Shown here piece by piece: positions 1-63,118 of a stretch of 64,000 nt of DNA (its first letter is position 1; every line of letters starts with the position of its first letter). Source of the stretch: a virus; IMG/VR virus record IMGVR_UViG_3300018915_000002. One strand, given 5' to 3'. A program made the translations under genes and the position numbers. The notes under the pieces are model-generated. The model did no database searches. It had not been told where the DNA came from and saw only the letters and a list, made by a program, of their open reading frames with translations.

Positions 1-1140
1 GATATCAAGGATGGTGATTCTCTCGTTCAGTACCATGCCGGGAAAATCTTGAAAACCCAGGAAGAAGTGGAGGCTGCCTTAGAAGAATTCGTTCAGAAAC
101 GCGCAGCACGGAGTTCCGTGGTAGAGGAGCCAGAAGAATCCTTGGTTCTAGAGGAAGAGGATGACGAGAAATTGTCTACTGAACCTGAAGAAGTCAAGAA
201 GAGCAACGTACTCCAATTTATGGCACGGAGTTCCGTGGTACAGGAGGAAGTTATTCTAGAAAAGCCTGAACCTGAGGCTACTAAAGAAGAAACTCCGTCT
301 GAGACTGTGCCACTGGAACCCACGGGCGAGACGGAGGAAGAAGATTGGATTTATATTAGCCCAGATCTGGAGAGAAAATGTGAGACCGTTGCCTCGCAAA
401 TTATCTCGATTACTCAGCCTTATGCAAAGGCTATTACACAATTCCTGTGGGAACTTAAGTTTGTTGTGTTCGAGGATGACCATCGTCGAAAATCCCGAAA
501 ATTCGGGACATTTGAGCAGATGTGTCGGCATCTTCACCAGGAGCATGACTTCCCCCTGCACCCCAACACTGCTCGTGAAAGGGCAAATGCTGAACAAGAA
601 CGTCGTACCCTACGTCAGTTGCTCCCAACTGTTGAGGTAGAGACGATGAGTGATCATGCGGCGTTAGAATTGAGGCGAATAGATTCCTTCAAAGGGGCTG
701 AGCCAGAGGTTATTCTGGAAGCTAAGAAGGCGATTGTTAAAGAGGCTCCAAAGCTCACCCAAAAGGCGATCGCCGACACGATTAAGTCTATGGCAGAGGC
801 GGAGGATTGGGAAGATAAATACAGGTTTCGCTACAACCCTAAGCCCAAAAATCGTGAGCAGGGAGAGAAGCCAGAACCGATTTCCAGGAAGGAGGTTGAA
901 GATCTCCAAAATCGAAATGCCCACTTAAATAAGCAGGTGCAACAGCTCCAGTCAGAAGTGACGGGGATGATTTCCGAAATGATGCATCTCAAGGAGGAGA
1001 ATGATCAAAAAGCTCGTAACGAAAAATTCCTCGCCGATAACTTGGAGTTGGCTCAGAATCAATTGAGTGAGAAAGACCAGGAAATTGAGCGGTTGAAGCA
1101 GGAGTTGGAAGAGGCTCGGAGAATGAGGTTCGCAGGATGA
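1..1140 (+). CDS. Acidic/coiled-coil hypothetical protein, possibly DNA-binding; probably 5'-truncated by the window
   Basis: Frame is open from base 1. Has an FGTFEQMC...ARER helical segment and a C-terminal coiled coil. Carries two CACGGAGTTCCGTG copies in frame (ARSSVV). Confidence 0.6.
   Translation, partial: DIKDGDSLVQYHAGKILKTQEEVEAALEEFVQKRAARSSVVEEPEESLVLEEEDDEKLSTEPEEVKKSNVLQFMARSSVVQEEVILEKPEPEATKEETPSETVPLEPTGETEEEDWIYISPDLERKCETVASQIISITQPYAKAITQFLWELKFVVFEDDHRRKSRKFGTFEQMCRHLHQEHDFPLHPNTARERANAEQERRTLRQLLPTVEVETMSDHAALELRRIDSFKGAEPEVILEAKKAIVKEAPKLTQKAIADTIKSMAEAEDWEDKYRFRYNPKPKNREQGEKPEPISRKEVEDLQNRNAHLNKQVQQLQSEVTGMISEMMHLKEENDQKARNEKFLADNLELAQNQLSEKDQEIERLKQELEEARRMRFAG
107..120. 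repeat. Palindrome CACGGA-GT-TCCGTG
   Basis: Exact copy, inside a CDS. Confidence 0.95.
224..237. repeat. Palindrome CACGGA-GT-TCCGTG
   Basis: Exact copy, inside a CDS. Confidence 0.95.
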
Positions 1141-1159
1141 GCGCGATCACATCCTAGAC

Positions 1160-1173
1160 CACGGAACTCCGTG
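1160..1173. repeat. Palindrome CACGGA-AC-TCCGTG
   Basis: Exact copy, between a stop codon and a terminator. Confidence 0.95.
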
Positions 1174-1176
1174 ATA

Positions 1177-1218
1177 CGAAAAACCCCTCGATCTTCACAA
1201 GGATCGAGGGGTTTTTCG
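1177..1218. terminator. Bidirectional intrinsic terminator
   Basis: CGAAAAACCCCTCGATC / GATCGAGGGGTTTTTCG inverted repeat between convergent genes. Confidence 0.8.
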
Positions 1219-1539
1219 CTAAGAGCGTCTTAATTGTTTCCGTGCATCGGGGTAGGAGTATTTATCGTCGGGCAATGGTTGCTCGTCGAGAAATATCTCG
1301 TAGCAATCGTTCCACGGATCAAAGAAGCGTCCGGGTTCCTTTTCCCAATTGCTTTGTAGGCTGAGAGAACGATGAACTCCTTTGGGTGTTATTTCTAGTT
1401 CAGCAATTATTGTTGCCCCACGGCAAGCAATAAGAGCCTTCTGTTCGACGGCTGACTGATTTCTACTCCTTTGTATTACAACAGGCGAATACATCGGTAG
1501 AGCTTCTATTTCTCGAAAAGTTAGCGTGGTTTTACTCAA
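1219..1539 (-). CDS. Hypothetical protein
   Basis: 106-aa ORF ending at the terminator, co-oriented with 1563..1745. Confidence 0.55.
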   Translation of the reverse strand: MSKTTLTFREIEALPMYSPVVIQRSRNQSAVEQKALIACRGATIIAELEITPKGVHRSLSLQSNWEKEPGRFFDPWNDCYEIFLDEQPLPDDKYSYPDARKQLRRS

Positions 1540-1562
1540 TCATCTAATACATCAGGTGTTTT

Positions 1563-1745: not shown

Positions 1746-1902
1746 GAATTTTGCTTTAATAATTAGTAGACACTGGGCTGTTTTTGTTCAATCGGAATTA
1801 ACAGCCATCTTCCTTATTGTAACAAGCCTACAAAGTGATCGCAAAAATGTAGGTGAATTATCAAAAATAATTGATATTCTAAGTATCAAAGCGAGGAAAA
1901 GT

Positions 1903-3769: not shown

Positions 3770-4072
3770 CTACCGACCTTGATGTTTTGCGACGGCTTTG
3801 TGTGACCGACAACTGTCCGTATGACGATTAATGATGAGGTTTGTCTTGTTGAGTATGATCGCCGTTCTCTCAACTGCTACCCCAATCTCAAATAATGCCC
3901 ACGCACACTGCTGTTGTTGCTCTTGATTGAGTTTGTCCCACGGAAGTCCGTGACGGATTCTAGCGATATCGTTCAGCAGCCTCAGTTGGGCTGAGCCACT
4001 CATCGTCTGGAGAGTCAAATCCGCCAGTTGTGGGATACTCTTCTGTTGGGGGGAGACTGTAACCATCGGCAC
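3770..4072 (-). CDS. Hypothetical protein
   Basis: 100-aa ORF overlapping the upstream gene; start uncertain. Confidence 0.4.
   Translation of the reverse strand: MPMVTVSPQQKSIPQLADLTLQTMSGSAQLRLLNDIARIRHGLPWDKLNQEQQQQCAWALFEIGVAVERTAIILNKTNLIINRHTDSCRSHKAVAKHQGR
3939..3952. repeat. Palindrome CACGGA-AG-TCCGTG
   Basis: Exact copy, 7 nt from the stop at 3960. Confidence 0.9.
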
Positions 4073-4525: not shown

Positions 4526-4539
4526 TGCGGAACTCCGTG
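4526..4539. repeat. Palindrome variant TGCGGA-AC-TCCGTG
   Basis: 12/14 match, 1 nt from the WYL stop codon. Confidence 0.8.
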
Positions 4540-4540
4540 G

Positions 4541-5236
4541 TCAAGGGCGGTAATGCGCGATCGCACCTTCTAACTGATCTATCAGTCTTTCTCGTACCCC
4601 ACTTTGGCTGAGTATCTTGCAATTCTTCCCGTATTGGATGACTTCTCGGATGAACCAGAAAGTGCTAGTGATTTGACGAGTGATGACTTTGGTTTTCTTG
4701 TCCCAGTAATCTAGGCGATCATTCGGTTGCAGGACGTAGGCATGTGCTAGCCAGCCGTAAAGCTCAAACTGTACAGGTAGAACTTCCAGCCCCTCCCTCC
4801 AGGTTGCTGAGTCTAATGGCACAACAGCAGAATCCTCCTCAGGAATACGATCAATCCGTAGGCTCCAGTTGTGCTGAAGTCCTGGGATGTCTTGGTTGTT
4901 TTCAGTCTGGTCGCACCAGCATTCCAGGTAATGCCGTTTTTCTCGATATACAACCTCGGCATACCGAGCGGTGAAGGTGAAAAATCGCCCTGCTGCGTCA
5001 ACGTAGCTGAGGTGGAAGGGGACTTTGTTTGTAATCAGTTCAAGGATTTCCGTCGCTCTCTTGTTGTTTAAGTCAGCAGGCTTGCTAACCTGCACCTCTC
5101 GGTAGGCGATCGCTTTATACAATGCCGTCTGATTCCCTCGATCTCCCCAGTTGAATCCCTGTTCCTGTGCGATCAATTCAAACTGTTGTTGTTCCTGTTC
5201 GGTGACATTTAGCTGTACGGTGTTGCGCTTGCTCAT
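4541..5236 (-). CDS. WYL-domain transcriptional regulator with RHH-like N-terminus
   Basis: HYLECWC...WSLRIDRI (WYL); WFIREVIQYGKNCKIL (WCX). Confidence 0.85.
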   Translation of the reverse strand: MSKRNTVQLNVTEQEQQQFELIAQEQGFNWGDRGNQTALYKAIAYREVQVSKPADLNNKRATEILELITNKVPFHLSYVDAAGRFFTFTARYAEVVYREKRHYLECWCDQTENNQDIPGLQHNWSLRIDRIPEEDSAVVPLDSATWREGLEVLPVQFELYGWLAHAYVLQPNDRLDYWDKKTKVITRQITSTFWFIREVIQYGKNCKILSQSGVRERLIDQLEGAIAHYRP

Positions 5237-5250
5237 TGACTTTTGTGTGA

Positions 5251-5280
5251 TAGCAGGATAGAAATAATTCTATCCTGCTA
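5251..5280. promoter_or_regulatory. 30-bp inverted repeat between divergent WYL and HAD genes; candidate operator
   Basis: TAGCAGGATAGAA-ATAA-TTCTATCCTGCTA, perfect 13-bp arms. Confidence 0.65.
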
Positions 5281-5296
5281 AACTGCTAAAATAGGA

Positions 5297-6058
5297 ATGA
5301 ACCCACAAAAGGAACGAATGCTTTGTTTGTTCGATAAGGATGGAACGCTGGTTGAAACCAAGTCTGGGAAACCGTTTCCTAAGCTTGGCGATCAGCGACT
5401 GATTCCCGGTGTCAAGGAACGAATTAGTGCCTTGGCTTTGACTGGCAGCATCATTGCCGTCACCAGCAACCAAGCTGGCATTGAGAAGGGGTATAAGAGC
5501 TTGGAGGATGCGATCGCAGAGTTTCAAGAACTGATGCAGTTATTACCCGAAGTCTCGGCTTGCTATTTTTGCCCCAATTTCTCTGGAAGCAAATGCTTCT
5601 ACGTTAATAAGGAAGGGCGAGTTGTAGCTGTCCACGAACAGTGGAAAAAGTACAGTGATTTGATCGGTCGCTTCAGGAAACCCAATCCAGGGATGCTTTT
5701 GTTGGCTATCGAACACGAACTATGGACATCTATGCTTGGGCAAAGGAAGCCGAACAAAGATGTCGCTTGCTACACAGGCGATCGCCCAGAGGATGAAAGG
5801 GCAGCCTATTTGGCTGATGTGCCATATCAGCACGTCACTGATTGGCTGCTAGATCACAACATGACGCACGGAGGAGATTGGAATTATCAAATTCTGGTGA
5901 CAACCCCTGAGTATGTCAGGGTGAAGACTTATGTCTATGCCCTCAATCAAATTGAAGCCATCGACTTCGCCAAACGCAATGCTTCTGCTCTGCTTAATTC
6001 AGGACAGGAGCTTGAGGATTTAAGCGAGTGGAAGACTGAATTTCTGAAGATGCCGTAA
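5297..6058 (+). CDS. HAD-IIIA phosphatase (polynucleotide 3'-phosphatase/GmhB-like)
   Basis: FDKDGTL, TSNQAGI, RKPNPGM and GD motifs. Confidence 0.85.
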   Translation: MNPQKERMLCLFDKDGTLVETKSGKPFPKLGDQRLIPGVKERISALALTGSIIAVTSNQAGIEKGYKSLEDAIAEFQELMQLLPEVSACYFCPNFSGSKCFYVNKEGRVVAVHEQWKKYSDLIGRFRKPNPGMLLLAIEHELWTSMLGQRKPNKDVACYTGDRPEDERAAYLADVPYQHVTDWLLDHNMTHGGDWNYQILVTTPEYVRVKTYVYALNQIEAIDFAKRNASALLNSGQELEDLSEWKTEFLKMP

Positions 6059-8721: not shown

Positions 8722-8809
8722 ATGTTCCGCAGTGGATTTAAACTTAGATCCACTGCGTTTCTTCTGTCCACTTCGCTTTAAACTTAAAGAGCCTTGGCTC
8801 GAACCGAAA

Positions 8810-9883
8810 ATGATGGACTTCATGCCCCACGGGGCTTGCTATCTCTGGGACGGAAAAATCATACTACTACACGTAGTTAGTGATGCTGGCATTGCTTTAG
8901 CGTATTTGTGCCTTCCGTTACTGCTTTGGCACTTTTCCCGGAAACGCAAAGACATCCCGTTTTCCTGGCTCTTCGCCATGTTTGGTGCATTTATTCTGAG
9001 TTGCGGCTCAACGCATCTTATGGGTATTTGGACATTGTGGCATCCCAGTTATTTGGCGGATGGATTACTCAAATTGGCGACAGCGGTAATCAGCCTAATG
9101 ACTGCGATCGCCCTTTTCACCCATCTGCCTGAGGTAATTGCCCTACCCTCTCCCTCTCAGATGTCCGAAAAGGAGCAACAACTGGAGGCGGCTTTGAAGA
9201 AGGAGCGGGAAATTAATGAATTTCGTCGGCGTATTGTCTCTACAGTGGCGCATGAGTATCGAACCCCACTAACGTCTATCCTCTCCTCTGCTGAACTGGT
9301 AGAGCGCTATCCAACTGGCAAGCGCTCAGTCCAGCACTTTGAAAATATTAGGAGAAAAATCACCTACCTTTCCAAGCTAATTGATGATGCCCTGATTCTA
9401 GATAAAGCTGAATCCGGGAGGTTGGAATTTCAACCTACTGAAATCGACGCAATTTCATGGTGTAGCGAGGTTCTTGCGGAATTAGATTGGGGAAAGCACA
9501 CGTTGCAGCTCAGTGCATTAGATGAGGCAGTAGGCTTATTCGATTTACGACTACTCAATGCCCTAGTTACCAATCTGGTGTACAACGCTTGTAAGTATTC
9601 CGATCCGGAATCTATTGTTTATGTTCGGCTACAAAGGGGTAACGAATCATTTATTTTGGAAGTTGAAGATCAGGGGATTGGCATTCCACTTGAGGATATT
9701 CCCCGCATTTTTGAATCTTACTTTCGAGCAGCCAATGTTGATTCTGCCCCTGGCACTGGTGTTGGACTTTCTATTGTGCAAGGATGTGTTAATCTCCACG
9801 ACGGCACTATCTCTGTTGTGAGCGAAGTGGGAGTTGGTACAACCTTTCGGGTTGTTTTGCCCCTGCGCCACGGAACTCCGTGA
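8810..9883 (+). CDS. Histidine kinase with ethylene-receptor-like 3-TM sensor
   Basis: FMPHG-CYLW, SDAGIALAY, AFILSCGSTH; H-box AHEYRTPL; N/G1/F/G2 boxes. Confidence 0.9.
   Translation: MMDFMPHGACYLWDGKIILLHVVSDAGIALAYLCLPLLLWHFSRKRKDIPFSWLFAMFGAFILSCGSTHLMGIWTLWHPSYLADGLLKLATAVISLMTAIALFTHLPEVIALPSPSQMSEKEQQLEAALKKEREINEFRRRIVSTVAHEYRTPLTSILSSAELVERYPTGKRSVQHFENIRRKITYLSKLIDDALILDKAESGRLEFQPTEIDAISWCSEVLAELDWGKHTLQLSALDEAVGLFDLRLLNALVTNLVYNACKYSDPESIVYVRLQRGNESFILEVEDQGIGIPLEDIPRIFESYFRAANVDSAPGTGVGLSIVQGCVNLHDGTISVVSEVGVGTTFRVVLPLRHGTP
9869..9882. repeat. Palindrome CACGGA-AC-TCCGTG
   Basis: Exact copy; overlaps the kinase TGA stop. Confidence 0.95.
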
Positions 9884-9929: not shown

Positions 9930-10811
9930 ATGTTCAAAAAAGCGACCAGAGAAAACCTTTTTCTGAAGATTGCATTGGTCGGTTCTCCAGGTAGCGGAAA
10001 GACCTTTTCCGCTTTGGCGATTGCAAGTCAATTCACAGATAAAATTGCTGTAATTGACACTGAGCGTGGTAGTTCACGTTTATATTCAAATCAGTTTGAC
10101 TTTGACATGTGTGAACTAACAGAACATAAACCGTTCAATTATGTTGAGGCAGTAAATGCTGCTCTAGAGATGGGATATGGAGCAATCATTATTGATAGCT
10201 TGTCTCACGCTTGGTTCGCTGAATTAGAGATGATTCAGGGGCGAAACACGTTTGCGGCTTGGGCGAAAGTTAGACCACAAGAAAGGGTATTAATTGAAAC
10301 CATCATCTCTGCCAAATCCCACATCATTGTAACGATGAGGGAAAAAACTGAATGGGACACATCTCAAAAAGATGAAGCGGGAAAGGTAAAGCCAGTCAAA
10401 GTTGGAACCAAAGCTATCCAAGCCGTCGGGATTGAGTACGAGTTTGATATCGTTGGACGAATCAACCAAGAACACGTATTAGCGATTACGAAAACTCGTT
10501 TTCCTGCGATCGCTAACCGCTCGTTCCCAAATCCCGGTAAGGCATTGGCTACAGAACTAAAAATTTCGATGGGGCTAGAGCAACCCTCTGTCGCTCCCAG
10601 CTTAATTCGATCAGATCAGCCAATTGATCCGACACAAGCCAATGAACAAATAATGGAGGAACTAAAGCGCATTGGCTGGTCAAAACAGGATGCCCAAGCA
10701 TACCTGGATCGGGTTTATAAAAAGACTTCGCGATCACATCTTACTGAGGCAGAACTACTGGAGTTTCTGTCCCACCTTCAGAGCCAACCGGAAAGCACGG
10801 CTCCTGTTTAA
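9930..10811 (+). CDS. AAA_24/Sak4-like phage recombination ATPase
   Basis: GSPGSGKT, VIDTE, IIIDSLSH, EYEFD. Confidence 0.8.
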   Translation: MFKKATRENLFLKIALVGSPGSGKTFSALAIASQFTDKIAVIDTERGSSRLYSNQFDFDMCELTEHKPFNYVEAVNAALEMGYGAIIIDSLSHAWFAELEMIQGRNTFAAWAKVRPQERVLIETIISAKSHIIVTMREKTEWDTSQKDEAGKVKPVKVGTKAIQAVGIEYEFDIVGRINQEHVLAITKTRFPAIANRSFPNPGKALATELKISMGLEQPSVAPSLIRSDQPIDPTQANEQIMEELKRIGWSKQDAQAYLDRVYKKTSRSHLTEAELLEFLSHLQSQPESTAPV

Positions 10812-10867: not shown

Positions 10868-10881
10868 CACGGAACTCCGTG
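10868..10881. repeat. Palindrome CACGGA-AC-TCCGTG
   Basis: Exact copy, 2 nt from the stop at 10884. Confidence 0.95.
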
Positions 10882-12355: not shown

Positions 12356-12387
12356 AGCGCACCACGGAGTTCCGTGGTGCGCTTTTT
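12356..12387 (+). terminator. Terminator built around the palindrome (CACGGA-GT-TCCGTG at 12363-12376)
   Basis: AGCGCAC-CACGGAGTTCCGTG-GTGCGCT-TTTT. Confidence 0.8.
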
Positions 12388-13067: not shown

Positions 13068-15635
13068 ATGGTTTCCTTAGAAAAACTCGCCCGTCCAGAT
13101 TTCGCTGAAGGCAGATTTACAGACCTCAATGAAGGTCGAATAATGGGAGGACTCCCAGCCGAGATCACCTCGCTCAATGATCCAGAAAAGCTTGGTCGTA
13201 TCCAGGTCTGTTGCCCACTTATTGACGACACTGCAAACCTGCCAAACGGGGATGACGGTTGGATTCAAGCGATCGAGCTGTTTACGAATAACGCCACCCC
13301 CGGTGGTAGTCATCGTCTCCTGCACGTCGGTAGCCAAGTAATTTTACTACCTATACTAGGTCATCCCAACCAAATGATATTGCTGGGGTGTATCCCAAAT
13401 CGAATTGATCGCCCCTCTCCAGAAGTTGATCGCGCAGAAGGTCTCTACGGTCACCATACCCAGAATGGGGTTTTCAAAATTCGCAATGACAAGGAGCAGT
13501 CAGAAATCAATGCCTTTCCGCACGGTGTTACCCAACACGTTTCCGGCGGTGGAGATATTACGCAGCAGACTAAAGAGGGTGCGAAGGTTCAACTCAAATC
13601 TGACGGCACTGTTAGAAATGAAAATCCAAAAAGTTCAACGACACTCGCCCCAGATGGAACAGTTGAAACGAGGAACGCCGCCTCCGGCACCAGTGTGCTG
13701 ACCAAGGACGGGAACTGGGAAATTAAATCCAAGAACCAAGCCTCCCTCAAACTGAACGATGGCGATGCCGTGATGGAAGGTCCCAAGTCTCAACTTTCCT
13801 CCCTCGTCTCCGGACTCAAGCAAAAACTCGCCGGTACACTGGGACAGGGTGAATCTCTTGTGCGCCAAATCGAAGGACTCAAAGATTCGATTGGCAGCAT
13901 GAGTATAGAGAATTTATTGACCGAGTTACCCGATGCGATCGCCTCTGTAGACTCGATCATCAAATCATTCCCCGATGTACTCGATACCCTCGACGAAATC
14001 AAGAAGTTTCCTGTCGAGGAATTGGGCGACTCTCTGATGGGACAGGCTACCCAGTTCCTTGATGCGGGATTAGGAGGCATTATCCCTGTGATCCAGGAGG
14101 TATTATCCAGTCCCGGTGGCATCGAGGAGAAGGTTAGTGAACTGGTAGAAAACTTAGGCTATACAGGGTCTGTACAAGAGCTTCGCGACATCTTAACCGG
14201 ACTAGACGGGATGCCCGATATCCAAATACAAGCAATATCAAGCCTTGTAGCGCCTGGAGGCTTTGAAGCATCGAAGAATATATTTGGTCTGGGCTTAGAG
14301 TCTACACTGTCTAAACTAGATCTAAACCTGAGCTATACAGGCTCTGTACAGGGTCTAAACGAGACCTCTACGAATACCTCTATTCAAGGTCTAATACAGG
14401 GGTTGACAAGTACTGGTCAAGATCTAGTGCAGGGCTATACAGGCTCTGTACAGGATCTAAACCTAGCAACTGTTGCCAATACATTGAATAAACTTGGTCT
14501 CTCGCTCGACAAAGATGATCTGAACCTCGCCGCGATACTCAACCCAACCTTCACACCCAACCCCACTACACAGTCGGGCAATATCGCCTCGCTTGCCACG
14601 GAGTTCCGTGGCGCTCAACAATTCCTGAACCAGTTGATTGAGCAGGAAATCCCCAGTCTCCTACCTGCACCCCTCAAGGATCTGTTTAGCAATGACGATG
14701 TGATGAACATTGTCCAACTAGCCCTAATCGGTGGGAACCCGATGGGAATGTTGCTGGGTCAATCCGCTTCAAAGCTGATTGGGGATTTAGCGCCAACGCT
14801 ATTAGAAGGAGTAGGGCTGGGAGGTGCGATCGCGCCCGTCCAGCAGTTGCTCGGTTCTCTCCAATCCGGAAACCTGGAAGGTGTAGGAAGCATCATCGAC
14901 ACGATCATCCCTGGTCTAGATCTTGATAAGGTCTTGTCAGGTGGTGTACAGGGGATTGTAGAGAATGTATTGCCCGATGCTCTTGGTGGAATAACGGGAG
15001 CATTGGGTGGACTCTTCGGCGGCGGAAAGAAGAAGGCTAACTTAGCGTTCAATGCGCTGAATGGGGCTGCCAAAGGTGGAACGATTCGCGCTACCAAAGA
15101 TAAGGTAGAAGCCGTAGCTGATTCCGCCCTGCCCACCGCAAAAATGGTGATCACTCGAAGTAAAGCCGCCCTTGTTGCTCAGACTGGACTCGCCGAGGTC
15201 TTCGCTGGTGGTGCAACAGCCGGGGTCTCAACTCCTTATGGTAGTTTTGGGTTTGGAGCAGGTGGCGGTAGCCTATTTAGTAAGGGTGCGATGGCGATGC
15301 GGATTGCCCAAGATATTGGTAAATCTGCGGGTCTGGTGCTACATCCAAAGTCAGGCGTTTCCTTGGCGAGTTTTGCTGACAGTGATTTTGATCCAGATAA
15401 ATCAGACGACTGGGATAGGAAAACCGCTGAGGTGACGATTGATGAGGGGAACGTGTACATCGCCTCTCATGGTAGTGACCATGATGGGATTGCTGTTACT
15501 CCGAATGGCGTTTACCTGGAAGGGTGGCACATTCGGGAATTGGTTAACAGGCTTTCTAGCCTAGAGACTTCCTTTGCTGGATTGTCTGTTCAGTCTGTAG
15601 TTGATGATATGGTGGGAGGTGCAATTTTGCCTTAG
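13068..15635 (+). CDS. Baseplate spike protein (gpV/gp5/VgrG-like) with long helical insertion
   Basis: DPEKLGRIQV OB-fold motif, beta-strand repeats, Gly-rich C-terminus. Confidence 0.75.
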   Translation: MVSLEKLARPDFAEGRFTDLNEGRIMGGLPAEITSLNDPEKLGRIQVCCPLIDDTANLPNGDDGWIQAIELFTNNATPGGSHRLLHVGSQVILLPILGHPNQMILLGCIPNRIDRPSPEVDRAEGLYGHHTQNGVFKIRNDKEQSEINAFPHGVTQHVSGGGDITQQTKEGAKVQLKSDGTVRNENPKSSTTLAPDGTVETRNAASGTSVLTKDGNWEIKSKNQASLKLNDGDAVMEGPKSQLSSLVSGLKQKLAGTLGQGESLVRQIEGLKDSIGSMSIENLLTELPDAIASVDSIIKSFPDVLDTLDEIKKFPVEELGDSLMGQATQFLDAGLGGIIPVIQEVLSSPGGIEEKVSELVENLGYTGSVQELRDILTGLDGMPDIQIQAISSLVAPGGFEASKNIFGLGLESTLSKLDLNLSYTGSVQGLNETSTNTSIQGLIQGLTSTGQDLVQGYTGSVQDLNLATVANTLNKLGLSLDKDDLNLAAILNPTFTPNPTTQSGNIASLATEFRGAQQFLNQLIEQEIPSLLPAPLKDLFSNDDVMNIVQLALIGGNPMGMLLGQSASKLIGDLAPTLLEGVGLGGAIAPVQQLLGSLQSGNLEGVGSIIDTIIPGLDLDKVLSGGVQGIVENVLPDALGGITGALGGLFGGGKKKANLAFNALNGAAKGGTIRATKDKVEAVADSALPTAKMVITRSKAALVAQTGLAEVFAGGATAGVSTPYGSFGFGAGGGSLFSKGAMAMRIAQDIGKSAGLVLHPKSGVSLASFADSDFDPDKSDDWDRKTAEVTIDEGNVYIASHGSDHDGIAVTPNGVYLEGWHIRELVNRLSSLETSFAGLSVQSVVDDMVGGAILP
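14597..14610. repeat. Palindrome CACGGA-GT-TCCGTG
   Basis: Exact copy inside a CDS, extended as GC...GC. Confidence 0.95.
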
Positions 15636-17044: not shown

Positions 17045-17058
17045 CACGGAACTCCGTG
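17045..17058. repeat. Palindrome CACGGA-AC-TCCGTG
   Basis: Exact copy, 1 nt from the sigma stop. Confidence 0.95.
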
Positions 17059-17059: not shown

Positions 17060-18025
17060 TCAGAAAACGTCAATCGACCGAATCTTCTTTCTCCTTGCAG
17101 TTGCTTGCAACCGCCTCAAAGCCTTTGCTTCGATTTGTCGAATCCGCTCACGGCTTAACTCTAGTTTGTCGCCGATTTGGGATAAACTCATGGGTTCTCC
17201 CTTTTCCCCATAGAATCGCAATCGGATAACCTCCTTTTCTCTCCCACTCAAAGAGGCGAGTAGTTCCGTTGCCGCGTCCTTTACGTCGGGCGAAACGTCG
17301 TCCTCTCCACGTCTATCAGGGATTAAATCGAGCAATTCGGTATCCTTCTCGTTGCCAATGTAGGTGGAAAGGGAGACGACGTTTCTGGCGTTTGCCAAAA
17401 TCTCTGCAATATCCTCCGGCTTCATCCCCATTTGGGCGGCTACTTCAGTTCTCCTGGGCGGTCTACCTAGCTGGTTTTCGAGTTCGCGAATTGTTTTTTT
17501 GATCTTATTGATCTTCTCTGTTACATGGATTGGGTTCCTAATCGGTCGTGCATCATTGGCGATCGCACGGGTGATTGCTTGCCGAATCCACCAGTAGGCG
17601 TAGGTTGAAAATTTATACCCTTTTTCAACGTCAAACTTTTCTGTTGCTCTCTGTAGCCCCATGTTTCCCTCTTGGATTAACTGAAGCAAATCCAGTCCCC
17701 TATTCTGGTACTTTTTGGCAACTGAAACCACCAGCCTTAGGTTGCTCTCAACCATTTTTTTCTTCGCCCGCAGCCCCCTTTCTAAAATCCGATTAAAGCT
17801 ATCGGGATCTATGTTTGCTGCCTTCCTCCACTCGTCCTGGGAGGGTTCTCGGTCAAGCGTCTCTTCTAGGCGATCGCGAATCTCCTCTAACTTGACCCGC
17901 TCGGTGACGAGTCTCGCTAGTTCAATTTCCTCATTCGGCTGTAGCAGTGGAATTCGCCCAATTTCACACAAATATTGGCGAACTCCATCAGTTGTTAATG
18001 GTTTTGCTTTCTTGGTAGCTGGCAT
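17060..18025 (-). CDS. RNA polymerase sigma-70 factor (cyanobacterial group 1/2-like)
   Basis: YLCEIGRIPLL, NLRLVVSVAKKY, KFSTYAYWWIRQAI, SRERIRQIE. Confidence 0.95.
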   Translation of the reverse strand: MPATKKAKPLTTDGVRQYLCEIGRIPLLQPNEEIELARLVTERVKLEEIRDRLEETLDREPSQDEWRKAANIDPDSFNRILERGLRAKKKMVESNLRLVVSVAKKYQNRGLDLLQLIQEGNMGLQRATEKFDVEKGYKFSTYAYWWIRQAITRAIANDARPIRNPIHVTEKINKIKKTIRELENQLGRPPRRTEVAAQMGMKPEDIAEILANARNVVSLSTYIGNEKDTELLDLIPDRRGEDDVSPDVKDAATELLASLSGREKEVIRLRFYGEKGEPMSLSQIGDKLELSRERIRQIEAKALRRLQATARRKKIRSIDVF

Positions 18026-21600: not shown

Positions 21601-22233
21601 ATGAACAAGCCCACAGAACAACTCAACGCGATCGCCTCCTCCCTGGAGGCTATCGCTTCACTGTGGGCGTATCGCAGCACGGAATTCCGTGGTCAAACCC
21701 GTCATGGAGAGATTATGAAACACAGGTTAATCAAGTTAATGGCAGGGGGCGCGATCGCACTCCCACTACTAATAACAACAACCTCTTGTAGAGGAGGCGC
21801 GACTGCTGTCCCAGTGGCACCGATTGTAGTAACTCCTGTTGCTGCTCCTTCGGTTGCCTCAGCTAATCCCCAAGCAGATAGGTGTCCTGATACGTGGACA
21901 GCGACTCTTTGGGTAAGTGATGTTCAACCAGAACAGGTTGAGGACATCAAGGTAACCGCCAAGTCTGATGCCGTATTCTGCCAACGCTTCGTTGGTAATA
22001 CTGATTCTGAGAAGGAATCAGAAGTAGGCGTAATGGTTAAGGTCGATGTGCCTGATATTTCAGCCGCACTGCCCCAGGAAACGATAACCTTCGCTAACCA
22101 AAAGGAAGCGGCGGAACACATCGCTAAGACCGAGGCTATGCTGTTGGATTCTGGGATAGAACCCAAAATCGATGCCACTCTCAAGCTCCTAGAAGAGGTT
22201 GGGTACAAGGTATCGGTCGGCTCTCTTGGATGA
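21601..22233 (+). CDS. Putative lipoprotein (alternative start 21715)
   Basis: MKHRLIK...LLITTTSC lipobox-like signal; leader motif before 21601. Confidence 0.6.
   Translation: MNKPTEQLNAIASSLEAIASLWAYRSTEFRGQTRHGEIMKHRLIKLMAGGAIALPLLITTTSCRGGATAVPVAPIVVTPVAAPSVASANPQADRCPDTWTATLWVSDVQPEQVEDIKVTAKSDAVFCQRFVGNTDSEKESEVGVMVKVDVPDISAALPQETITFANQKEAAEHIAKTEAMLLDSGIEPKIDATLKLLEEVGYKVSVGSLG
21678..21691. repeat. Perfect palindrome CACGGA-AT-TCCGTG
   Basis: Exact copy. Confidence 0.95.
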
Positions 22234-22594: not shown

Positions 22595-22608
22595 CACGGA
22601 ACTCCGTG
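22595..22608. repeat. Palindrome CACGGA-AC-TCCGTG
   Basis: Exact copy, intergenic. Confidence 0.95.
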
Positions 22609-24047: not shown

Positions 24048-25253
24048 ATGAGTACGTCCAAAGCAAAAGCATTACCGGCAGCCAATCTCGGTCTCGTTCA
24101 GTTTACTGACGAGAAAGACGACATTGATCCGGCTGATAGCGCGATGCAAATCAAGCTTAGTTCCAGTGATCCGGATCGCGCCATCATCAAACTCGCTCGA
24201 CCAGAGGCTCTTCCTGATGGGCACAACGTTTGCATGGATATGGGACGGCGATTCATCAAGATTGCCTACTGGAAAAATCCTTCAACCATTGTCATCGACA
24301 AAATGCCGACGGAACTCGCTGACGTGCCAGCGGAAAAAAACCTAGGGGTAGCCAAGAGTAAGTTCTTGGCTAGGAACCAAAAGAAGGTAGCGGCTAAGAA
24401 TCGAGTTAGTATCACCTATTTGGATAAGACCTACACTGCCGCTCTTCGCGCCCAGAAGCTAGGCGGAAAAAGAGGATTAGGGGAAAAGAAGACTAAAGAT
24501 CTCCTACCTCGTGTCCTTTGTGCCTTGACCCTGCACGAAATAAAGGAAGGGAAAGTTAACCTCATCCTCACTATTCCCTTTGAGGGGGCTAGTGATTGGG
24601 CTACCCAAGAAGCTATGGCGGCTGAGCTTGTGGATGGCCAACGAGTTTGGACTTCGGACTTGGGTCTACATGATGTCACCATTCGGTGTGCTGTTGTCCC
24701 TGAGAGCTTCTATGCCGAGAAGTTCCCTCGGCTTTCCGGTTCGGAATCTCCGGACTGGGAAGAAATTGACCACCACGTTTTTGACTTCGGATATCAAACC
24801 TTCCTGAAATCAACATTCGTGTTTGACCCAATCATGGAACGGTCTTCCTTTGACCCAGACCTTTCCGCTTGCTACGACGGCAAAGGCTTAAGCCTCTACT
24901 ATGAGTACGTCGCAGTGGCTTGTGGTTACGGCAAAGAGAATTCTGAAGACCCAGCTTTTATCGAAGCGGTTAACAGAGAAGACGAAAACTTTGTGTGCTC
25001 GAAAGGAACGCTGGTTCTCACACCGGCGATCGCAATAGCCTCTACTCGTTACCTCAACGAGATCGTCGCGCTTGCCAATCCTTCTCCTGGTATCGTTCAC
25101 TTCCAGATAGTAGGTGGTGGAGCATATAAGTTCGGTCAAGAATTCTGCAATCACTTTGAGTACGCAGAAACCTTTGTGACTGACTTACCTGACCTAGCCA
25201 ACATCATTGGTCAAGCGATTAGCTTGCCAACTGAAGAATTATTCAACGATTAA
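24048..25253 (+). CDS. ParM/StbA-like actin ATPase
   Basis: MDMGRRFIK (phosphate 1), VPES, FDFGYQT (phosphate 2), VGGGA (adenosine). Confidence 0.8.
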   Translation: MSTSKAKALPAANLGLVQFTDEKDDIDPADSAMQIKLSSSDPDRAIIKLARPEALPDGHNVCMDMGRRFIKIAYWKNPSTIVIDKMPTELADVPAEKNLGVAKSKFLARNQKKVAAKNRVSITYLDKTYTAALRAQKLGGKRGLGEKKTKDLLPRVLCALTLHEIKEGKVNLILTIPFEGASDWATQEAMAAELVDGQRVWTSDLGLHDVTIRCAVVPESFYAEKFPRLSGSESPDWEEIDHHVFDFGYQTFLKSTFVFDPIMERSSFDPDLSACYDGKGLSLYYEYVAVACGYGKENSEDPAFIEAVNREDENFVCSKGTLVLTPAIAIASTRYLNEIVALANPSPGIVHFQIVGGGAYKFGQEFCNHFEYAETFVTDLPDLANIIGQAISLPTEELFND

Positions 25254-25316
25254 GTAGCCACGTCACCCAGTCCATAAGGACTGGGTGAGGATGCAAGCCG
25301 AAACAAAAAGGAATCC

Positions 25317-25745
25317 ATGACTAACTCAACACAAACCCTTACCCCAGAAGCTTTCAAGGCAGCACTCCTCGGAATGGAGACTCAATATCCGAAATTAGCC
25401 TCTTCTCTAGAGAACCTAAGGAAAGAGGTGGAGGGCACCTTGTACGGACACCTGATGGAACCTCATCTTTGGATGAAAATGGCGGTGGGTCTTGAATACC
25501 CAGAAATCGCAGCCCAAGGGGCAGACATAGCGGCTTGTTTCACTGTTGAATTTATTGCAGGAATGGAGAAACAAGCCGGATATTACCTGGAATATTTACC
25601 TAAGTACTGTAATAGCTACCCGATGGTTCAGGAGTTCCATGAACTCGTAACTAAGTACATCAAGGAACACTCAGGTCAATTCATCCGCCAAGCCCCTCCA
25701 ATCACTAACGAGCGGATTGATCGTGCCCGCAGGAATTTCGGCTAG
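25317..25745 (+). CDS. Hypothetical protein
   Basis: AGGA SD, 142 aa. Confidence 0.65.
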   Translation: MTNSTQTLTPEAFKAALLGMETQYPKLASSLENLRKEVEGTLYGHLMEPHLWMKMAVGLEYPEIAAQGADIAACFTVEFIAGMEKQAGYYLEYLPKYCNSYPMVQEFHELVTKYIKEHSGQFIRQAPPITNERIDRARRNFG

Positions 25746-25768
25746 TAGATGACTGCACCTTCCTAGCT

Positions 25769-26401
25769 ATGGTGGCTAGGCGGGATGGAGTCATTTACCA
25801 GACGAACATGACAAAAACTGCTCTTGCCTCAGATTGGGGGGATGAAGATGAACCTAACCCCCGAAAATTCAACCGCTTCTACAATCGCCCAGGAGCAGAG
25901 GTGTTACGAAACCTCAAAATCCCGGTCGATATCTTAGATCGCATTGAACGGTTTAAGGAAGAAAACAATCTAGATCCAGACAAAATAGCCAAGGCGGCTG
26001 AATCAGGCAGTGAAATTGCGGATGCAGTCAGCGAGGAATTAACTAACGTCAAGCTTATAGCAATGGAAGGCTTGATCGTCCAGCAGGGAATAAATTCCCT
26101 ATCAAAAACCCAAGCAGGCGTTGAACAACAGCAAAAAATTCATACCCGAAATCAACACCTGCTTAAGCGAAATCGAGAGTTAGAGGCATACACAAAAGAT
26201 CTAGTCATAACGTTGACTTGGACACAGCTTAAAGCCGCTCTCCCTTACATTGGCATTGCTGCTCTTTGCATCACTGCTGTTGCCGTAACCCACCTAGCCA
26301 CTAAATCGTCAAATGGTAGTAGCGTTTCGCCCAACCAAAGTCAGTCGCCAGCCGTTCAGCCCCAAGTCGTGCCATCTACTGGGGCAAGTCCAGGAAGTTG
26401 A
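25769..26401 (+). CDS. Coiled-coil protein with C-terminal TM helix
   Basis: LPYIGIAALCITAVAV. Confidence 0.65.
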   Translation: MVARRDGVIYQTNMTKTALASDWGDEDEPNPRKFNRFYNRPGAEVLRNLKIPVDILDRIERFKEENNLDPDKIAKAAESGSEIADAVSEELTNVKLIAMEGLIVQQGINSLSKTQAGVEQQQKIHTRNQHLLKRNRELEAYTKDLVITLTWTQLKAALPYIGIAALCITAVAVTHLATKSSNGSSVSPNQSQSPAVQPQVVPSTGASPGS

Positions 26402-28627: not shown

Positions 28628-28641
28628 CACGGAACTCCGTG
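28628..28641. repeat. Palindrome CACGGA-AC-TCCGTG
   Basis: Exact copy, 9 nt after a stop. Confidence 0.95.
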
Positions 28642-30448: not shown

Positions 30449-30545
30449 GTCACCCTGTTTTTTCTGGGTTTTTACTCTACCCAGACTAGGGTTTTGCAAT
30501 CTAAAATTTTAAAATTAGGCACAACAAGTCAGGAACTCGCGCAAA

Positions 30546-30857
30546 ATGCAAGAATTGGCGATGATACGACGCGATCGCACGGGTTGGTCGAAGGAAAAGA
30601 TATTAGGAGACGAACTTCGTATAGCCAGAGAGTGCCTGGGACTATCGCAAGAGGAATTGGGGCAGAGGATTGAATTGTCTCGACAACAGGTGGGGCTTAT
30701 AGAGCAGGGGAAGCGAAAGCTGGAGTGGGATGAATTTGAGAATTGGGCTACGGCTGTGGGGCGGACAACTGACAGCTTTCGTAGGATTGTCCGACAAGAA
30801 TTAGAGAAAAAAAAGCTACCACGGAACTCCGTGATAGAGGAAATTAAGGGTTCTTAG
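30546..30857 (+). CDS. XRE-family HTH regulator
   Basis: LRIARECLGLSQEELGQRIELSRQQVGLIEQGKR. Confidence 0.85.
   Translation: MQELAMIRRDRTGWSKEKILGDELRIARECLGLSQEELGQRIELSRQQVGLIEQGKRKLEWDEFENWATAVGRTTDSFRRIVRQELEKKKLPRNSVIEEIKGS
30820..30833. repeat. Palindrome CACGGA-AC-TCCGTG
   Basis: Exact copy in the 3' end of the XRE gene. Confidence 0.95.
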
Positions 30858-36702: not shown

Positions 36703-36716
36703 CACGGAACTCCGTG
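36703..36716. repeat. Palindrome CACGGA-AC-TCCGTG
   Basis: Exact copy, 1 nt after TAA. Confidence 0.95.
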
Positions 36717-37707: not shown

Positions 37708-37721
37708 CACGGAACTCCGTG
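37708..37721. repeat. Palindrome CACGGA-AC-TCCGTG
   Basis: Exact copy, 1 nt after TAA; terminator at about 37728-37763. Confidence 0.95.
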
Positions 37722-43431: not shown

Positions 43432-43445
43432 CACGGCTCTCCGTG
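43432..43445. repeat. Palindrome variant CACGGC-TC-TCCGTG
   Basis: 1 mismatch; fills a 24-bp intergenic gap. Confidence 0.8.
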
Positions 43446-48490: not shown

Positions 48491-48987
48491 CTATTAGCTA
48501 TAAAAGAAACCGGAATTTTTTCCTTCGCTTTGTTGATGGCGAATTTGAAGGAACATCGTTTCCTGATGATATGGCGAATCCTGATCGCCAAGCCCTCCAA
48601 GAATGGCTAGATGCAGGGAACGAAGTAGAAGAAATACAATCCGCTGCTCCAGAGCCATCTGTAGACAAATGGAAAGGACTTGCCGCCGCATTCAAATTAT
48701 CTGAACTCAATGGCATTCTCAAGGGACTTAAAGATGCAGGGGATAACCCAAAAGTCAACGCCATCTGGCGAATCTCCGATGACCTGACGTTAGTGATCTT
48801 GAACGATGTATTCAGCGACGATATTCGCACGAAGTCAATGACGCAAGAGTTCATCGCTTTATTCCAGAAATTAGAGGAAGGGGAAGTAGTGGTGCCTGAC
48901 TCAGCTCGGATCGAGATTCGCGAAGCTTTAGAAAGACTGGGCTTTGACTCAGTTGTTGAAGCCTTGTCACGGAATTCCGTGGTCTAA
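48487..48987 (+). CDS. Probable tail-fibre assembly chaperone
   Basis: P.D..N.DR....EWL.AGN motif directly after the fibre gene. Confidence 0.6.
   Translation: MTISYKRNRNFFLRFVDGEFEGTSFPDDMANPDRQALQEWLDAGNEVEEIQSAAPEPSVDKWKGLAAAFKLSELNGILKGLKDAGDNPKVNAIWRISDDLTLVILNDVFSDDIRTKSMTQEFIALFQKLEEGEVVVPDSARIEIREALERLGFDSVVEALSRNSVV
48968..48981. repeat. Perfect palindrome CACGGA-AT-TCCGTG
   Basis: Exact copy at convergent stop codons. Confidence 0.95.
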
Positions 48988-50487: not shown

Positions 50488-50522
50488 AGTCCTCGTCACG
50501 GAGTCCCGTGGTGAGGACTTTC
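50488..50522 (+). terminator. Terminator built around palindrome variant CACGGA-GT-CCCGTG (50497-50510)
   Basis: AGTCCTC...GAGGACT-TTT. Confidence 0.7.
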
Positions 50523-52987: not shown

Positions 52988-53001
52988 CACGGAACTCCGT
53001 G
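52988..53001. repeat. Palindrome CACGGA-AC-TCCGTG
   Basis: Exact copy, abuts the stop at 53002; terminator at about 52951-52980. Confidence 0.95.
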
Positions 53002-56241: not shown

Positions 56242-57059
56242 TCACTTCCTCCTTCACGGACTTCCGTGGTGAAGTTTAAAGCCCAGACCCAAGGGTTGGG
56301 ATAAGCATGGCAGGGAATACCCTTGCGACAAGCATTGAGGGGCTTTTCGGGGATGTCATCCTCGTCCCAAGGGTAGCAGATATAGTAAGCAAGGGTTCCC
56401 CCTTTACGGACGGGAGTCCATTTACCATTTATCTCGTTCCATAGCGATCTGAAACTTCGTCGTCCAGCATCTCCGTCCTGGCTTGTGCAGGGCACTTGAA
56501 GTTCGTAGTTAAAGTATCGCACTCGGCTTTTAAACGGAGGGATTGCTCGCAAGATTTCTAAGGGTTGTATTCCTTCTCTGATCGCATCCTCTTCACTAAT
56601 CTCACTAATGCGCTGAACCCGAACCTCGGTGATCTCCCTCCAAATCCTAGCTGCCCACTTGGGCATGAATATTGCACTATGGCTTTCCGTTTCTTTGTGA
56701 TGCGCCCAAGCAATCATCGCTCCCTCATTCTTCTTTGCAACCATGACTGTTTCATGATCCGCGTCATAGTGCCAGCAGTGGTCGCTACCAAGGTAGAGCG
56801 ATTCTTTACAGTAAAGGCGATCGCCTACTTTGTATGGAGCCTTCGATAGCATCAAGGGACTATCTATCAGTGGTGCGTTAGCTTTTTTGTCTCTCCGCCA
56901 CACCCAAGAGCCATTCTCTAAAGTGGGCTGAGGATCGATTATTCTTCGGGTTTGAGTCTTGGGACTTTCATCTCTAAGCAATGCCTTGATCAGGTGCGGC
57001 TTAAAAAGTAAGCCGATATCCTTGCCAGTGGCGACTGGCTCTTTGTCGATGGTTTGCAT
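56238..57059 (-). CDS. ASCH/PUA-like phage protein
   Basis: KTQTRR, GDRLYCKE, FMPKWAAR, ISEEDAIREG, NPWVW. Confidence 0.75.
   Translation of the reverse strand: MQTIDKEPVATGKDIGLLFKPHLIKALLRDESPKTQTRRIIDPQPTLENGSWVWRRDKKANAPLIDSPLMLSKAPYKVGDRLYCKESLYLGSDHCWHYDADHETVMVAKKNEGAMIAWAHHKETESHSAIFMPKWAARIWREITEVRVQRISEISEEDAIREGIQPLEILRAIPPFKSRVRYFNYELQVPCTSQDGDAGRRSFRSLWNEINGKWTPVRKGGTLAYYICYPWDEDDIPEKPLNACRKGIPCHAYPNPWVWALNFTTEVREGGSE
56255..56268. repeat. Palindrome CACGGA-CT-TCCGTG
   Basis: Exact copy in the last codons of a gene, just upstream of the methyltransferase start. Confidence 0.9.
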
Positions 57060-58654: not shown

Positions 58655-58668
58655 CACGGAACTCCGTG
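58655..58668. repeat. Palindrome CACGGA-AC-TCCGTG
   Basis: Exact copy between the terminator at about 58676-58714 and the ATG at 58650. Confidence 0.95.
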
Positions 58669-62400: not shown

Positions 62401-62709
62401 CCAGTATTTCCACGCCCGTTTAATTACATCAATTTTGGTAGCAATTGACCAAGTGGGTTTAAGTCCAACTCCGAGCCAATGACCGTCGAGAATTCCTAGT
62501 CCGACGAACTGCCCTAACCAGTCTAGATGCCCCCAACTCGCAGGATGATCCGGATCGTAGAAGTACTCCTGAAGCCGAATCTTGGAATAGATCTCATCTA
62601 GTTCTGGTTGGATGCCCCAGTCGCAAATATGCCGCAGCAATCCACGTTCCTCGTCCACCATCCGGGCGTAGATGGGGAGCATGTCATAGAGTCGTCGGGA
62701 ATAGGACAT
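59500..62709 (-). CDS. Baseplate wedge/tail protein I-like protein with long acidic extension
   Basis: LYDMLP..R..D, LDWLGQFVG, IKGSEAGIR (P2 gpI-like); C-terminal HNLGKYPSV. Confidence 0.75.
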   Translation of the reverse strand: MSYSRRLYDMLPIYARMVDEERGLLRHICDWGIQPELDEIYSKIRLQEYFYDPDHPASWGHLDWLGQFVGLGILDGHWLGVGLKPTWSIATKIDVIKRAWKYWQIKGSEAGIREAIAMWLRFEDKKRLLLNLPFGTTPTDEPPNWHGWNTPYDVSLNQTFPEKQRLGWGNYWGNHHRPDYFTLQADWAWEWGGLVEPGDEGSLTPGEPWQDRVEDGEIIQTLNYVEPPDIYLDRSRMGDRELWMHFYLQESEWNRIFPDIFDLNLEILPITTTATVFGWLQGIRQPAIQPLIQTPRSVEEQTVTEFEFDGMQWGQLMATEDWHLPANTWAYAGTLWSFDVADPYTSIETVKSQIEWGMWDPEWWDGQPWGTVIGERANHESLSITVNLEPVPTLKGETLSISTKDLPYYTEIAPTYWYSPWEERTITETITVQHPGTGCLEGIPIKFDSSPDTLTISLGRSLASVTNQLLVPYEEEGAPKVTSSEETYQETLTIYIPRPNAGGFYDASAEEVPEGDWIEASFLRSESTDVSEPNFESGYAEQSVPVPGFKPATVFRPEQIQVAEAVVESPVTPILSSSDFQSAAVITETEEEQSVPLLEFERGQVQGNYPVLNGFENASITQDLSPSPITPSIPVSRPVTQPVEEISSPATDTIDFEAGSIEGFERARTQGNYPITEGFDDANFGVNEFDPEPTLTGETLSAGVDDPPRVWISPTTRIQMGLEEPILVATYNDGYENYPYYYDSGFDGDITEVAVPIETLSINTSEWNAVETLSATPEIDGYLCNVFGGWSSLTPTNVNQYKLEIQEGDFSIFDAYPLLAQASDGEQWKLLVETTEEYYILQPVTMFWKKQGQKIPVGKDVRRSQIFSFEEKMTDLYLEFVFQPKEDTYIQSASLSLAGKLIQHQNYYYKLNAPDEARIGFVFDVPFRLPSGAGSPQEEVLLEEILPNLTTELLQLAGLPTTSGLIPTTPVITTLPSEPAVDPESLTEILRSLRDLIRDKGGDKHFPHTIETLSLEVRIDHNLGKYPSVTYVDTVDGEGNKSYGDVRYIDRNTIVISFTEPTIGRVFCN

Positions 62710-62764
62710 TAAACTAATTCGATTGCTACAATCGGTCTATCGTTTACTGGGAAGAAGTTGCCTC

Positions 62765-63118
62765 ATGACAAAGACAGTGGCAGTTTTTGCTTTCAAGGTT
62801 TGTGTTAAGTCAAATTTTCCTGAAAGGCTTGTCCCTCTGATCACAACAGCACTGCGTGGGGGTGAATCAATAACGTTTGTTGAGGTCGAAAACCTTTGTT
62901 TAGTGGCAAGAGGTCGCTTCATGACAGAGGTAGTGACGGCTTTTGTTTTCAAAGTCTGTGTTGAGTCTATTTCTCCCCAGCAAGTTGTCTCACATATTGC
63001 AGCAAGGCTACGAGATATTGAGTCGGTGACGTTTGTTGAGGTCGAAGAATTTCAAGAGCGGACAGGATTAATTTACTCTCAAACGGACAACGACATTAGC
63101 TACCACGGAACTCCGTGA
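62765..63118 (+). CDS. Hypothetical protein made of two tandem repeats
   Basis: F.FKVCV.S..P....ES.TFVEVE twice. Confidence 0.6.
   Translation: MTKTVAVFAFKVCVKSNFPERLVPLITTALRGGESITFVEVENLCLVARGRFMTEVVTAFVFKVCVESISPQQVVSHIAARLRDIESVTFVEVEEFQERTGLIYSQTDNDISYHGTP
63104..63117. repeat. Palindrome CACGGA-AC-TCCGTG
   Basis: Exact copy; overlaps a TGA stop at a convergent junction. Confidence 0.95.

Follow-up and report, generated by a model that had tools for sequence, protein, structure and literature searches.

A 14-bp palindrome dispersed at gene ends of a giant cyanophage: a candidate binding site for a phage-encoded protein

The 64,000-nt stretch of the IMG/VR virus record IMGVR_UViG_3300018915_000002 analysed here (hereafter the window) carries 20 exact copies of the 14-bp palindrome CACGGA-NN-TCCGTG together with three variants of it. 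These sites are specific to the phage, conserved across its lineages, clustered at stop codons and variable in the manner of DNA sites. Their best explanation, to which we assign a probability of about 0.45 on the basis of sequence comparison, would be that the 14-mer is a double-stranded DNA site for a phage-encoded dimeric helix-turn-helix (HTH) protein and that the network acts on phage transcription.

The window contains 69 copies of HIP1, and the replicon is therefore cyanobacterial. Its first open reading frame (ORF) is also on record within a 242,772-bp contig, and the window is part of a cyanobacterial phage of approximately 243 kb, of which 74 kb (the window and 10 kb of upstream DNA, the latter with six further 14-mer sites) was seen and approximately 170 kb was not. 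The phage is kin to pC052_F, its closest annotated relative, a plasmid of the cultured strain Nostoc sp. C052 that was deposited as a circular molecule of 223 kb and on which phage and plasmid genes (terminase, portal, tape measure, and ParA/ParB) occur together. Roughly 25 genes are common to the window and pC052_F, with 25-55% identity, and the window phage is probably a temperate, plasmid-like giant cyanophage.

Census and gene-end placement

The 20 exact copies and three variants had been listed in an earlier reading made from the sequence alone (the sequence-only reading), and all of them were recovered at the same positions; the variants at 43432 and 50497 have one mismatch each and that at 4526 has two. 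No copy appeared in 100 dinucleotide shuffles, and a chance origin of the network is excluded. An additional match with two mismatches, at 5041, is at chance level (1.8 expected). The exact 14-mer had no match in the literature. The sites are as follows.

107..120, site in frame within the acidic linker of ORF 1..1140, where it reads RSSVV
224..237, site likewise in frame within that linker of ORF 1..1140, the second copy there
1160..1173, site 19 nt past the stop of ORF 1..1140, ahead of a bidirectional terminator
3939..3952, site in a convergent gap, 7 nt past a minus-strand stop
4526..4539, variant site with two mismatches and a pC052_F-type half-site, 1 nt past the stop of a WYL/WCX-like gene
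9869..9882, site overlapping the histidine kinase stop (HGTP*)
10868..10881, site 2 nt past a minus-strand stop, ahead of a terminator
12363..12376, site at the tip of an intrinsic terminator
14597..14610, site deep within ORF 13068..15635 (baseplate-spike-like)
17045..17058, site 1 nt past the sigma-70 gene stop, ahead of a terminator
21678..21691, the exception, site 23 nt ahead of a likely start, in a divergent gap or leader
22595..22608, site at a tandem junction, 22 nt past a stop
28628..28641, site at a tandem junction, 9 nt past a stop
30820..30833, site within the final codons of the XRE gene, its position kept in relatives
36703..36716, site 1 nt past a stop, ahead of a terminator
37708..37721, site 1 nt past a stop, ahead of a terminator
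43432..43445, variant site with one mismatch, in the gap from a stop to the following start
48968..48981, site where two convergent genes overlap at their ends
50497..50510, variant site with one mismatch, at the tip of a terminator
52988..53001, site directly past a minus-strand stop, ahead of a terminator
56255..56268, site within the final codons of a gene, 13 nt ahead of a methyltransferase start
58655..58668, site past a terminator, 4 nt ahead of a minus-strand start
63104..63117, site at convergent ends, 2 nt past a minus-strand stop and within a plus-strand ORF that ends HGTP*

Distances to stop codons were measured on a hand-curated gene set. The proposed proximity to stops was borne out: 18 of the 23 sites lie no more than 25 nt from a stop codon, compared with 7.9% in the background (binomial p 3e-16), and 200,000 permutations placed at most 10 sites near stops. 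When only the intergenic sites are considered, 13 out of 15 are near a stop, compared with 24.7% of intergenic positions (p 8e-7), which indicates that the sites hug stop codons and do not merely avoid genes. Eight sites start 0-2 nt past a stop, in line with the close spacing that had been claimed, and 14 of the 18 gene-end sites start at most 10 nt past the stop or ahead of it. About a quarter of the window genes have a 14-mer at their end. As had also been noted, neither insertion sequence (IS) element contains a copy, and two ORFs end in HGTP*, the histidine kinase at 8732-9883 and the ORF at 62921-63118, the gene status of the latter being unproven.

Other parts of the initial description had to be corrected. 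Divergent promoter regions are not free of sites, since the copy at 21678 is located in a divergent gap, 23 nt ahead of the likely start at 21715 (it falls inside an ORF only if the ATG at 21601 is the start), and such regions are modestly depleted (P 0.02 counted by bases, 0.27 by junctions). The term lattice holds for the window-wide spread of the sites, while their regular spacing is marginal (coefficient of variation 0.66; P 0.03 versus uniform placement, 0.05 versus random gene ends). Of the association with intrinsic terminators, what remains is that six copies are positioned between a stop codon and a separate terminator hairpin; only those at 12363 and 50497 form a terminator tip. As a class, intrinsic terminator loops do not fit the motif, a stem tip plus U tract being present in only 2 of the 23 copies.

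Distribution across replicons and lineages

Plasmid pC052_F has 13 copies of a variant, YRCGGAATTCCGYR, while no copy was found on pC052_A and pC052_B of the same strain (878 kb) or on two other plasmids. Eight of the 14 pC052_F sites are deep in coding sequence. The window-type 14-mer is also present in L131, L134/L245 and L180 (46-55% protein identity), and on two short contigs, L179 and L242, that carry yet more distant homologues; altogether the motif is conserved in at least six further lineages. It is absent from four more distant phages (G001-G004), three of them at least 98% complete. Metagenome contigs gave 61 matches, none with a second copy on the same contig, and almost all matches in the scans of viral and metagenome contigs were single chance matches.

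Two of the motif-less phages have dense, unrelated palindromes of their own at gene junctions: G002 contains 39 copies of WTAAA(CC/GG)TTTAW in 107 kb, and G003 contains 93 copies of WAATYRATYRATTW in 149 kb. Both palindromes are A+T-rich and, unlike the window 14-mer, are enriched at starts as well as at stops. Judged from these genomes, a palindrome network is a family trait whose sequence is lineage-specific; a common function of the palindromes is conjectural. Beside its main motif, G003 (IMGVR_UViG_3300005673_000003) has a second palindrome family, ACAT-N7-ATGT, with approximately 8 copies (e.g. 2316, 12482 and 119688) in promoter-like settings. Many bidirectional terminators of G004 (IMGVR_UViG_3300032431_000001) share the loop region ATTAAWTTAAT (e.g. 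13615, 52383 and 121716), and their stems often include HIP1 halves.

Nature of the site

Forty-seven sites, some of them orthologous, were read in the sense direction. Their centres, AC in 19 and GT in 13, show no orientation bias, and the Watson-Crick pairs in the flanks are fewer than expected from permutation (12 versus 17.4 at position 1, 17 versus 20.4 at position 2). Departures from symmetry in pC052_F comprise nine A.C mismatches versus five G.U wobbles, and the G002 and G003 palindromes do not fold; two symmetric double substitutions in L134 point the other way. With no orientation bias, no excess of flank pairing and few terminator caps, the motif behaves like a double-stranded DNA site, and on these sequence grounds we favour such a site over an RNA hairpin.

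The centre of the 14-mer comprises seven dinucleotide classes. GAGCTC is missing genome-wide (0 versus 15 expected) and occurs in none of the genomes examined; the two GC-centred sites that were found each have a single substitution by which it is lost. Because of this avoidance the preference for an AC centre is no proof of directionality. Restriction avoidance partly shapes the spectrum of centres but does not account for the rarity of the AT centre here. Several 6-bp palindromes, among them GAGCTC, GTCGAC, CTCGAG and CCGCGG, are fully avoided in the window and its relatives, and the host might be identified from this restriction fingerprint.

Candidate reader proteins

The sequence-only reading had postulated a phage-encoded dimeric reader. 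That the motif is a phage-specific site for a symmetric protein that recognises its sequence gains indirect support from the confinement of the motif to the phage, its conservation across lineages (45-55% protein identity) and the lack of an orientation or pairing signal. Candidates were filtered for genes that occur in pC052_F and are absent from the motif-less phages. Four of the six binders it had proposed were lost because they have no pC052_F homologue: the product of 18261, which has a homologue in the motif-less G001, that of 20625, with a homologue in G002, and those of 22635 and 22950. The products of 30546 and 1..1140 (P0001) remain, and the filter was passed by the former, an XRE protein, by P0001, by a WYL protein and by a sigma factor. 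The two main candidates are:

30546..30857, plus strand, XRE/Cro-C1 helix-turn-helix protein, leading candidate reader (family match, gene-end site)
1..1140, plus strand, P0001, 3' part of a 470-aa gene, second candidate reader (sequence and predicted structure)

The XRE protein matches the families of the 434 repressor and of the C.AhdI/C.BclI restriction controller proteins; its homologues are 66-78% identical, and all have an Arg where the recognition helix begins. Its gene is present in pC052_F and absent from the four motif-less relatives. A site is found at the 3' end of the XRE gene in all three loci for which DNA is available, including pC052_F, and in different reading frames; in pC052_F only 4 of 240 genes, the XRE gene among them, have a 3'-end site. 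Six more XRE homologues end in HGTP, HGVP or HGSP, the peptide encoded by the site, so that at least 9 of 13 have a 3'-end site. At 29375-30857 the conserved 29375 gene has a swappable divergent regulator beside it, which is XRE in the window and in pC052_F and PadR-like (by eye) in the motif-less G001.

P0001 consists of a beta-rich N-domain, an acidic linker, a helical core and a coiled coil. The core, modelled at a predicted local distance difference test score (pLDDT) of 83.5, has weak fold matches to StbA (Z 6.0), KorB (Z 5.1 and 4.8), Noc DNA-binding domains and DUF3102, all of them under significance (Z <8, Foldseek E 1.8). A homodimer was predicted with a score of 0.65, compared with 0.00 for the best control (contact agreement between runs at least 82%, pLDDT at least 80); 20 of 30 solved pairs and 1 of 23 single chains attain the mark used. 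Sites accumulate near the P0001 gene in the window (4 versus 0.9 expected), in L134 (3 versus 1.1) and in pC052_F (1 versus 0.14), and a perfect site stands 43 bp ahead of the start of a 37%-identical homologue; none was found near the gene in L180, L179 and L243. P0001 is absent from the motif-less phages. Eight of the 30 residues of its putative recognition region differ between 98.8%-identical strains with identical sites, which argues against P0001 as the reader.

Comparison of P0001 with Pfam, PHROG and PDB sequence families returned nothing but coiled-coil noise, and no ParB_N; a profile comparison with the pC052_F ParB was negative, an Atlas shape search with the model found nothing, and KOW/Tudor-like matches of the N-domain were not significant. 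Searches of IMG/VR, GTDB and metagenomes with P0001, XRE and a tail protein yielded no locus. The P0001 core domain also occurs on Nostocales plasmids (L138 20013-20975; L139 700-1755) that have no dispersed palindrome, and in L138 it is fused to an annotated endonuclease domain and divergent from a small HTH gene. In L134 (9300-11680) the RNase HII-P0001 block is an allele divergent from that of L137, the two strains being otherwise identical over 8.8 kb; the substitutions concentrate in the putative HTH, and diversifying selection on it is possible from this pattern.

Were the sites read by a single protein, we would put the chance that it is encoded outside the 74 kb seen at a little under half, that of XRE at roughly a third, and that of P0001 at about one in five.

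Partition and recombination

A role in partition is disfavoured. The window encodes a protein of the following type:

24048..25253, plus strand, ParM/CorM-like actin (PDB 9rmi, E 1.5e-9)

It is followed by small genes, one of them ribbon-helix-helix-like by eye, and 24048-26401 is probably a type II partition module, pC052_F having an unrelated ParA/ParB instead. Partition is unlikely because the two best-known carriers of the motif use unrelated ATPases. The ParB of pC052_F is of the ordinary Nostocales plasmid type, and its best 120 matches include none on the 242,772-bp contig, with 74 kb of the genome seen.

Dedicated site-specific recombination, another function that had been suggested, is disfavoured as well: no tyrosine integrase (PF00589) was found in five relatives, with a positive control, and the centre of the site varies. 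The annotation of pC052_F lists IS607 transposases only, no search having been aimed at serine recombinases (PF00239). Homology does break at sites, the gene order being Z-site-methyltransferase-site-RNaseH in the window, Z-site-RNaseH in L131 and W-site-methyltransferase in L134. L246 has a deletion of approximately 350 bp that stops 2 bp to the left of a site, and the divergent allele block of L137 starts about 15 nt past one. Many rearranged junctions have no site, and four assemblies of the window genome show no rearrangement across the first 7-11 kb. The downstream flanks of sites have a consensus resembling a ribosome-binding site (RBS), even where no gene starts. We read the breakpoints as a probable consequence of the repeats and as a route of their spread.

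Proposed function and alternative explanations

In the interpretation that we prefer, a reader dimer would bind the 14-mer sites across the phage replicon, and the bound network would most plausibly keep this replicon quiet in its plasmid-like prophage state, stoperator-like but with symmetric sites. Bound protein would hinder RNA polymerase at gene ends. Such an action fits the placement of the sites inside the transcript, at the stop codon and away from promoters, and the slot between stop and terminator, or between stop and RBS, would be the place where a site covers no promoter. We infer the binding of a protein, the identity of XRE as the reader and the hindrance of polymerase from these patterns. 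Because most gene-end sites start so close to the stop codon, or ahead of it, a polymerase stalled there may release mRNA lacking its stop codon, by extension from PMC13584721 and the LacI precedent cited in it. Short-homology recombination between copies might help them spread. A bolder form of the proposal, which we regard as unlikely, is silencing at 3' ends, in which a repressor at stop codons would stall polymerase and consign transcripts without stops to destruction by the transfer-messenger RNA (tmRNA) system at approximately a quarter of the genes, the lineage-specific palindrome and its reader forming an immunity-like code.

Several points weigh against this interpretation. The same geometry is accounted for if a site is simply tolerated in the one slot left free, and six sites are just ahead of a terminator, where a roadblock adds little against read-through. 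Stoperators need a fixed orientation (PMC9283540), which the window sites do not have. The divergent promoter of XRE (30448-30546 and the orthologous gaps) is without a site, unlike that of lambda-type repressors. The motif-bearing genomes all belong to one clade, so that co-occurrence is confounded by kinship; G003, where the palindrome is denser, has no HTH_3 gene, and no site is near the HTH genes of G002. Lysogeny of the window phage itself is extrapolated from a relative.

Among the alternatives, an architectural function has perhaps a minor but real share of the probability: P0001, as a KorB/Noc-like dimer lacking a CTPase and endowed with a long coiled coil, would organise, position or protect the replicon, and the gene-end placement would reflect tolerance. 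The confidently modelled core with its weak but coherent fold matches, the predicted homodimer, the clusters of sites at the gene in three lineages, the upstream site of the 37%-identical homologue and the absence of P0001 from motif-less phages are consistent with this, but the matches are under significance, a coiled coil passes the dimer test easily, the putative recognition region varies while the sites do not, and both the distant plasmid homologues and the gene in L180, L179 and L243 are unaccompanied by a site. It is unlikely that the palindrome, often with its flanking stop and RBS, is a module boundary, i.e. a junction at which genes are inserted, deleted or swapped by recombination and which spreads thereby. 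The homology breaks, the L246 deletion, the L137 allele block, the RBS-like flanks and the recombination reported between Cluster O repeats (PMC4351075) all speak for such a junction; the missing tyrosine integrase, seven centre classes that are unfit for a strand-exchange overlap between partners, the siteless junctions, the mostly intragenic sites of pC052_F and the unrearranged assemblies speak against it, and any repeat collects breakpoints.

Slightly less likely again is an RNA element in 3' untranslated regions, with a 5-bp stem and a four-base loop, that would serve an RNA-binding protein, a nuclease or termination. Its stem folds at -5.9 kcal/mol, the sites lie within transcripts upstream of terminators, two of them cap terminators, and the symmetric double substitution is seen twice in L134; yet, besides the absent orientation and flank-pairing signals and the excess of mismatches over wobbles, the stems are invariant and do not covary, the pC052_F variants are reduced to 3-4 pairs inside genes, and the sister motifs do not fold. 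A host repeat (REP, HIP-like or SDR), a partition centromere or chance is very improbable and largely refuted. Small repeats abound in the host group, HIP1 being the example here, some sites have a GTAG-like foot, and HTH-type centromeres are inverted repeats of 13-16 bp (10.1101/2022.04.29.490116). Against these stand the motif-free co-resident plasmids and the solitary metagenome matches, the occurrence of copies singly and not in pairs, with none in IS elements and none at a TnpA gene as in REP/RAYT systems, the unrelated partition ATPases of two motif-bearing genomes, the pC052_F ParB, whose best 120 matches include no close relative on the 242,772-bp contig, and the empty shuffles.

The network recurs over the giant-cyanophage family and, in the window, follows a sharp rule, at the stop codon and away from promoters. 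If the roadblock interpretation is true, prophage gene control would act at gene ends instead of promoters. One carrier, pC052_F, belongs to a cultured strain. With two small candidate proteins the question can be tested directly.

Other features of the window and its relatives

An ETR1_N (ethylene-receptor-like) histidine kinase (8732-9883) and a full sigma-70 factor (17060-18025) are encoded by genes that end at a site. A divergent pair of WYL/WCX-like and PNK3P-like genes (4541-6058) is kept in pC052_F and L131. The window also has a further enzyme gene:

9930..10811, plus strand, AAA_24 ATPase, which could recombine the short repeats

We take this ATPase to be a Sak4-like annealing protein. 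A rolling-circle Rep_1 (HUH) gene is located between two sites 7 kb upstream of the window (L127 3304-4260) and has no pC052_F homologue. Family members also carry genes for Ro60/TROVE (L127 638-2248), Tad6 (L179 93-203), DpdA (L242 87-950), an orphan Cas5d (L123 38696-39394) and an orphan Csx3 (L124 17272-17586). Searches for tRNAs and Rfam families matched nothing.

Comparison with known systems

The stoperators of Cluster A mycobacteriophages (L5) are asymmetric 13-mers in fixed orientation with transcription, are read by a two-domain monomer and also serve as promoter operators (PMC9283540). Shared with them are more than 20 dispersed sites in short intergenic spaces and the proposed halting of elongation; the window sites differ in being symmetric, unoriented and depleted at promoters. 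Noc with its NBS sites and MatP with matS are dispersed palindrome systems. Plasmid RK2 has 12 palindromic OB operators for KorB (10.1101/2022.04.29.490116; PMC11790492). With KorB, Noc and MatP the window network has in common palindromes of 13-16 bp that are dispersed over the replicon, some of them within genes. In contrast to KorB and Noc, P0001 has no ParB CTPase domain and hence no sliding clamp, the site density in the window is far higher, and no cognate ParA-ParB pair is common to the motif-bearing genomes. Compared with the lambda and 434 repressors, the XRE/Cro-C1 protein is present while operators at divergent promoters are absent.

Polymerase blocked by a DNA-bound protein gives rise to tmRNA tags some eight codons upstream (PMC13584721), and LacI bound at the end of lacI is cited there as blocking polymerase with tmRNA tagging as the outcome. 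As far as that citation describes it, the LacI roadblock resembles the situation at the XRE gene in that the gene of the regulator itself carries a protein site at its 3' end and that a blocked polymerase would yield non-stop mRNA; one site and one gene are concerned there, whereas by analogy the same geometry would recur here at about a quarter of the genes. The window network would work like a stoperator or KorB-type network and belongs to neither.

The earlier suggestion that the system is of a new kind does not hold, because dispersed dyad repeats are known from Cluster O mycobacteriophages, which have more than 30 near-invariant 17-bp copies per genome, with function and reader unknown; recombination between them has been reported, and indels are bounded by repeats (PMC4351075). 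The present analysis adds controls and a filter for candidate readers. Dense palindrome networks of phages had already been seen, in Cluster O, with neither reader nor function. Like the window sites, the Cluster O repeats are phage-specific, unoriented dyads with a preferred asymmetric centre, many of them in short intergenic gaps, while sequence, host phylum and phage are all unrelated. The window motif is set apart by its 6+2+6 bp layout, its tie to stop codons (p 3e-16), its probably temperate, plasmid-like lineage with a cultured carrier, and sister phages that swap the motif. As a descriptive class, with no sequence homology implied, the window network is one of Cluster O-type dyad repeats.

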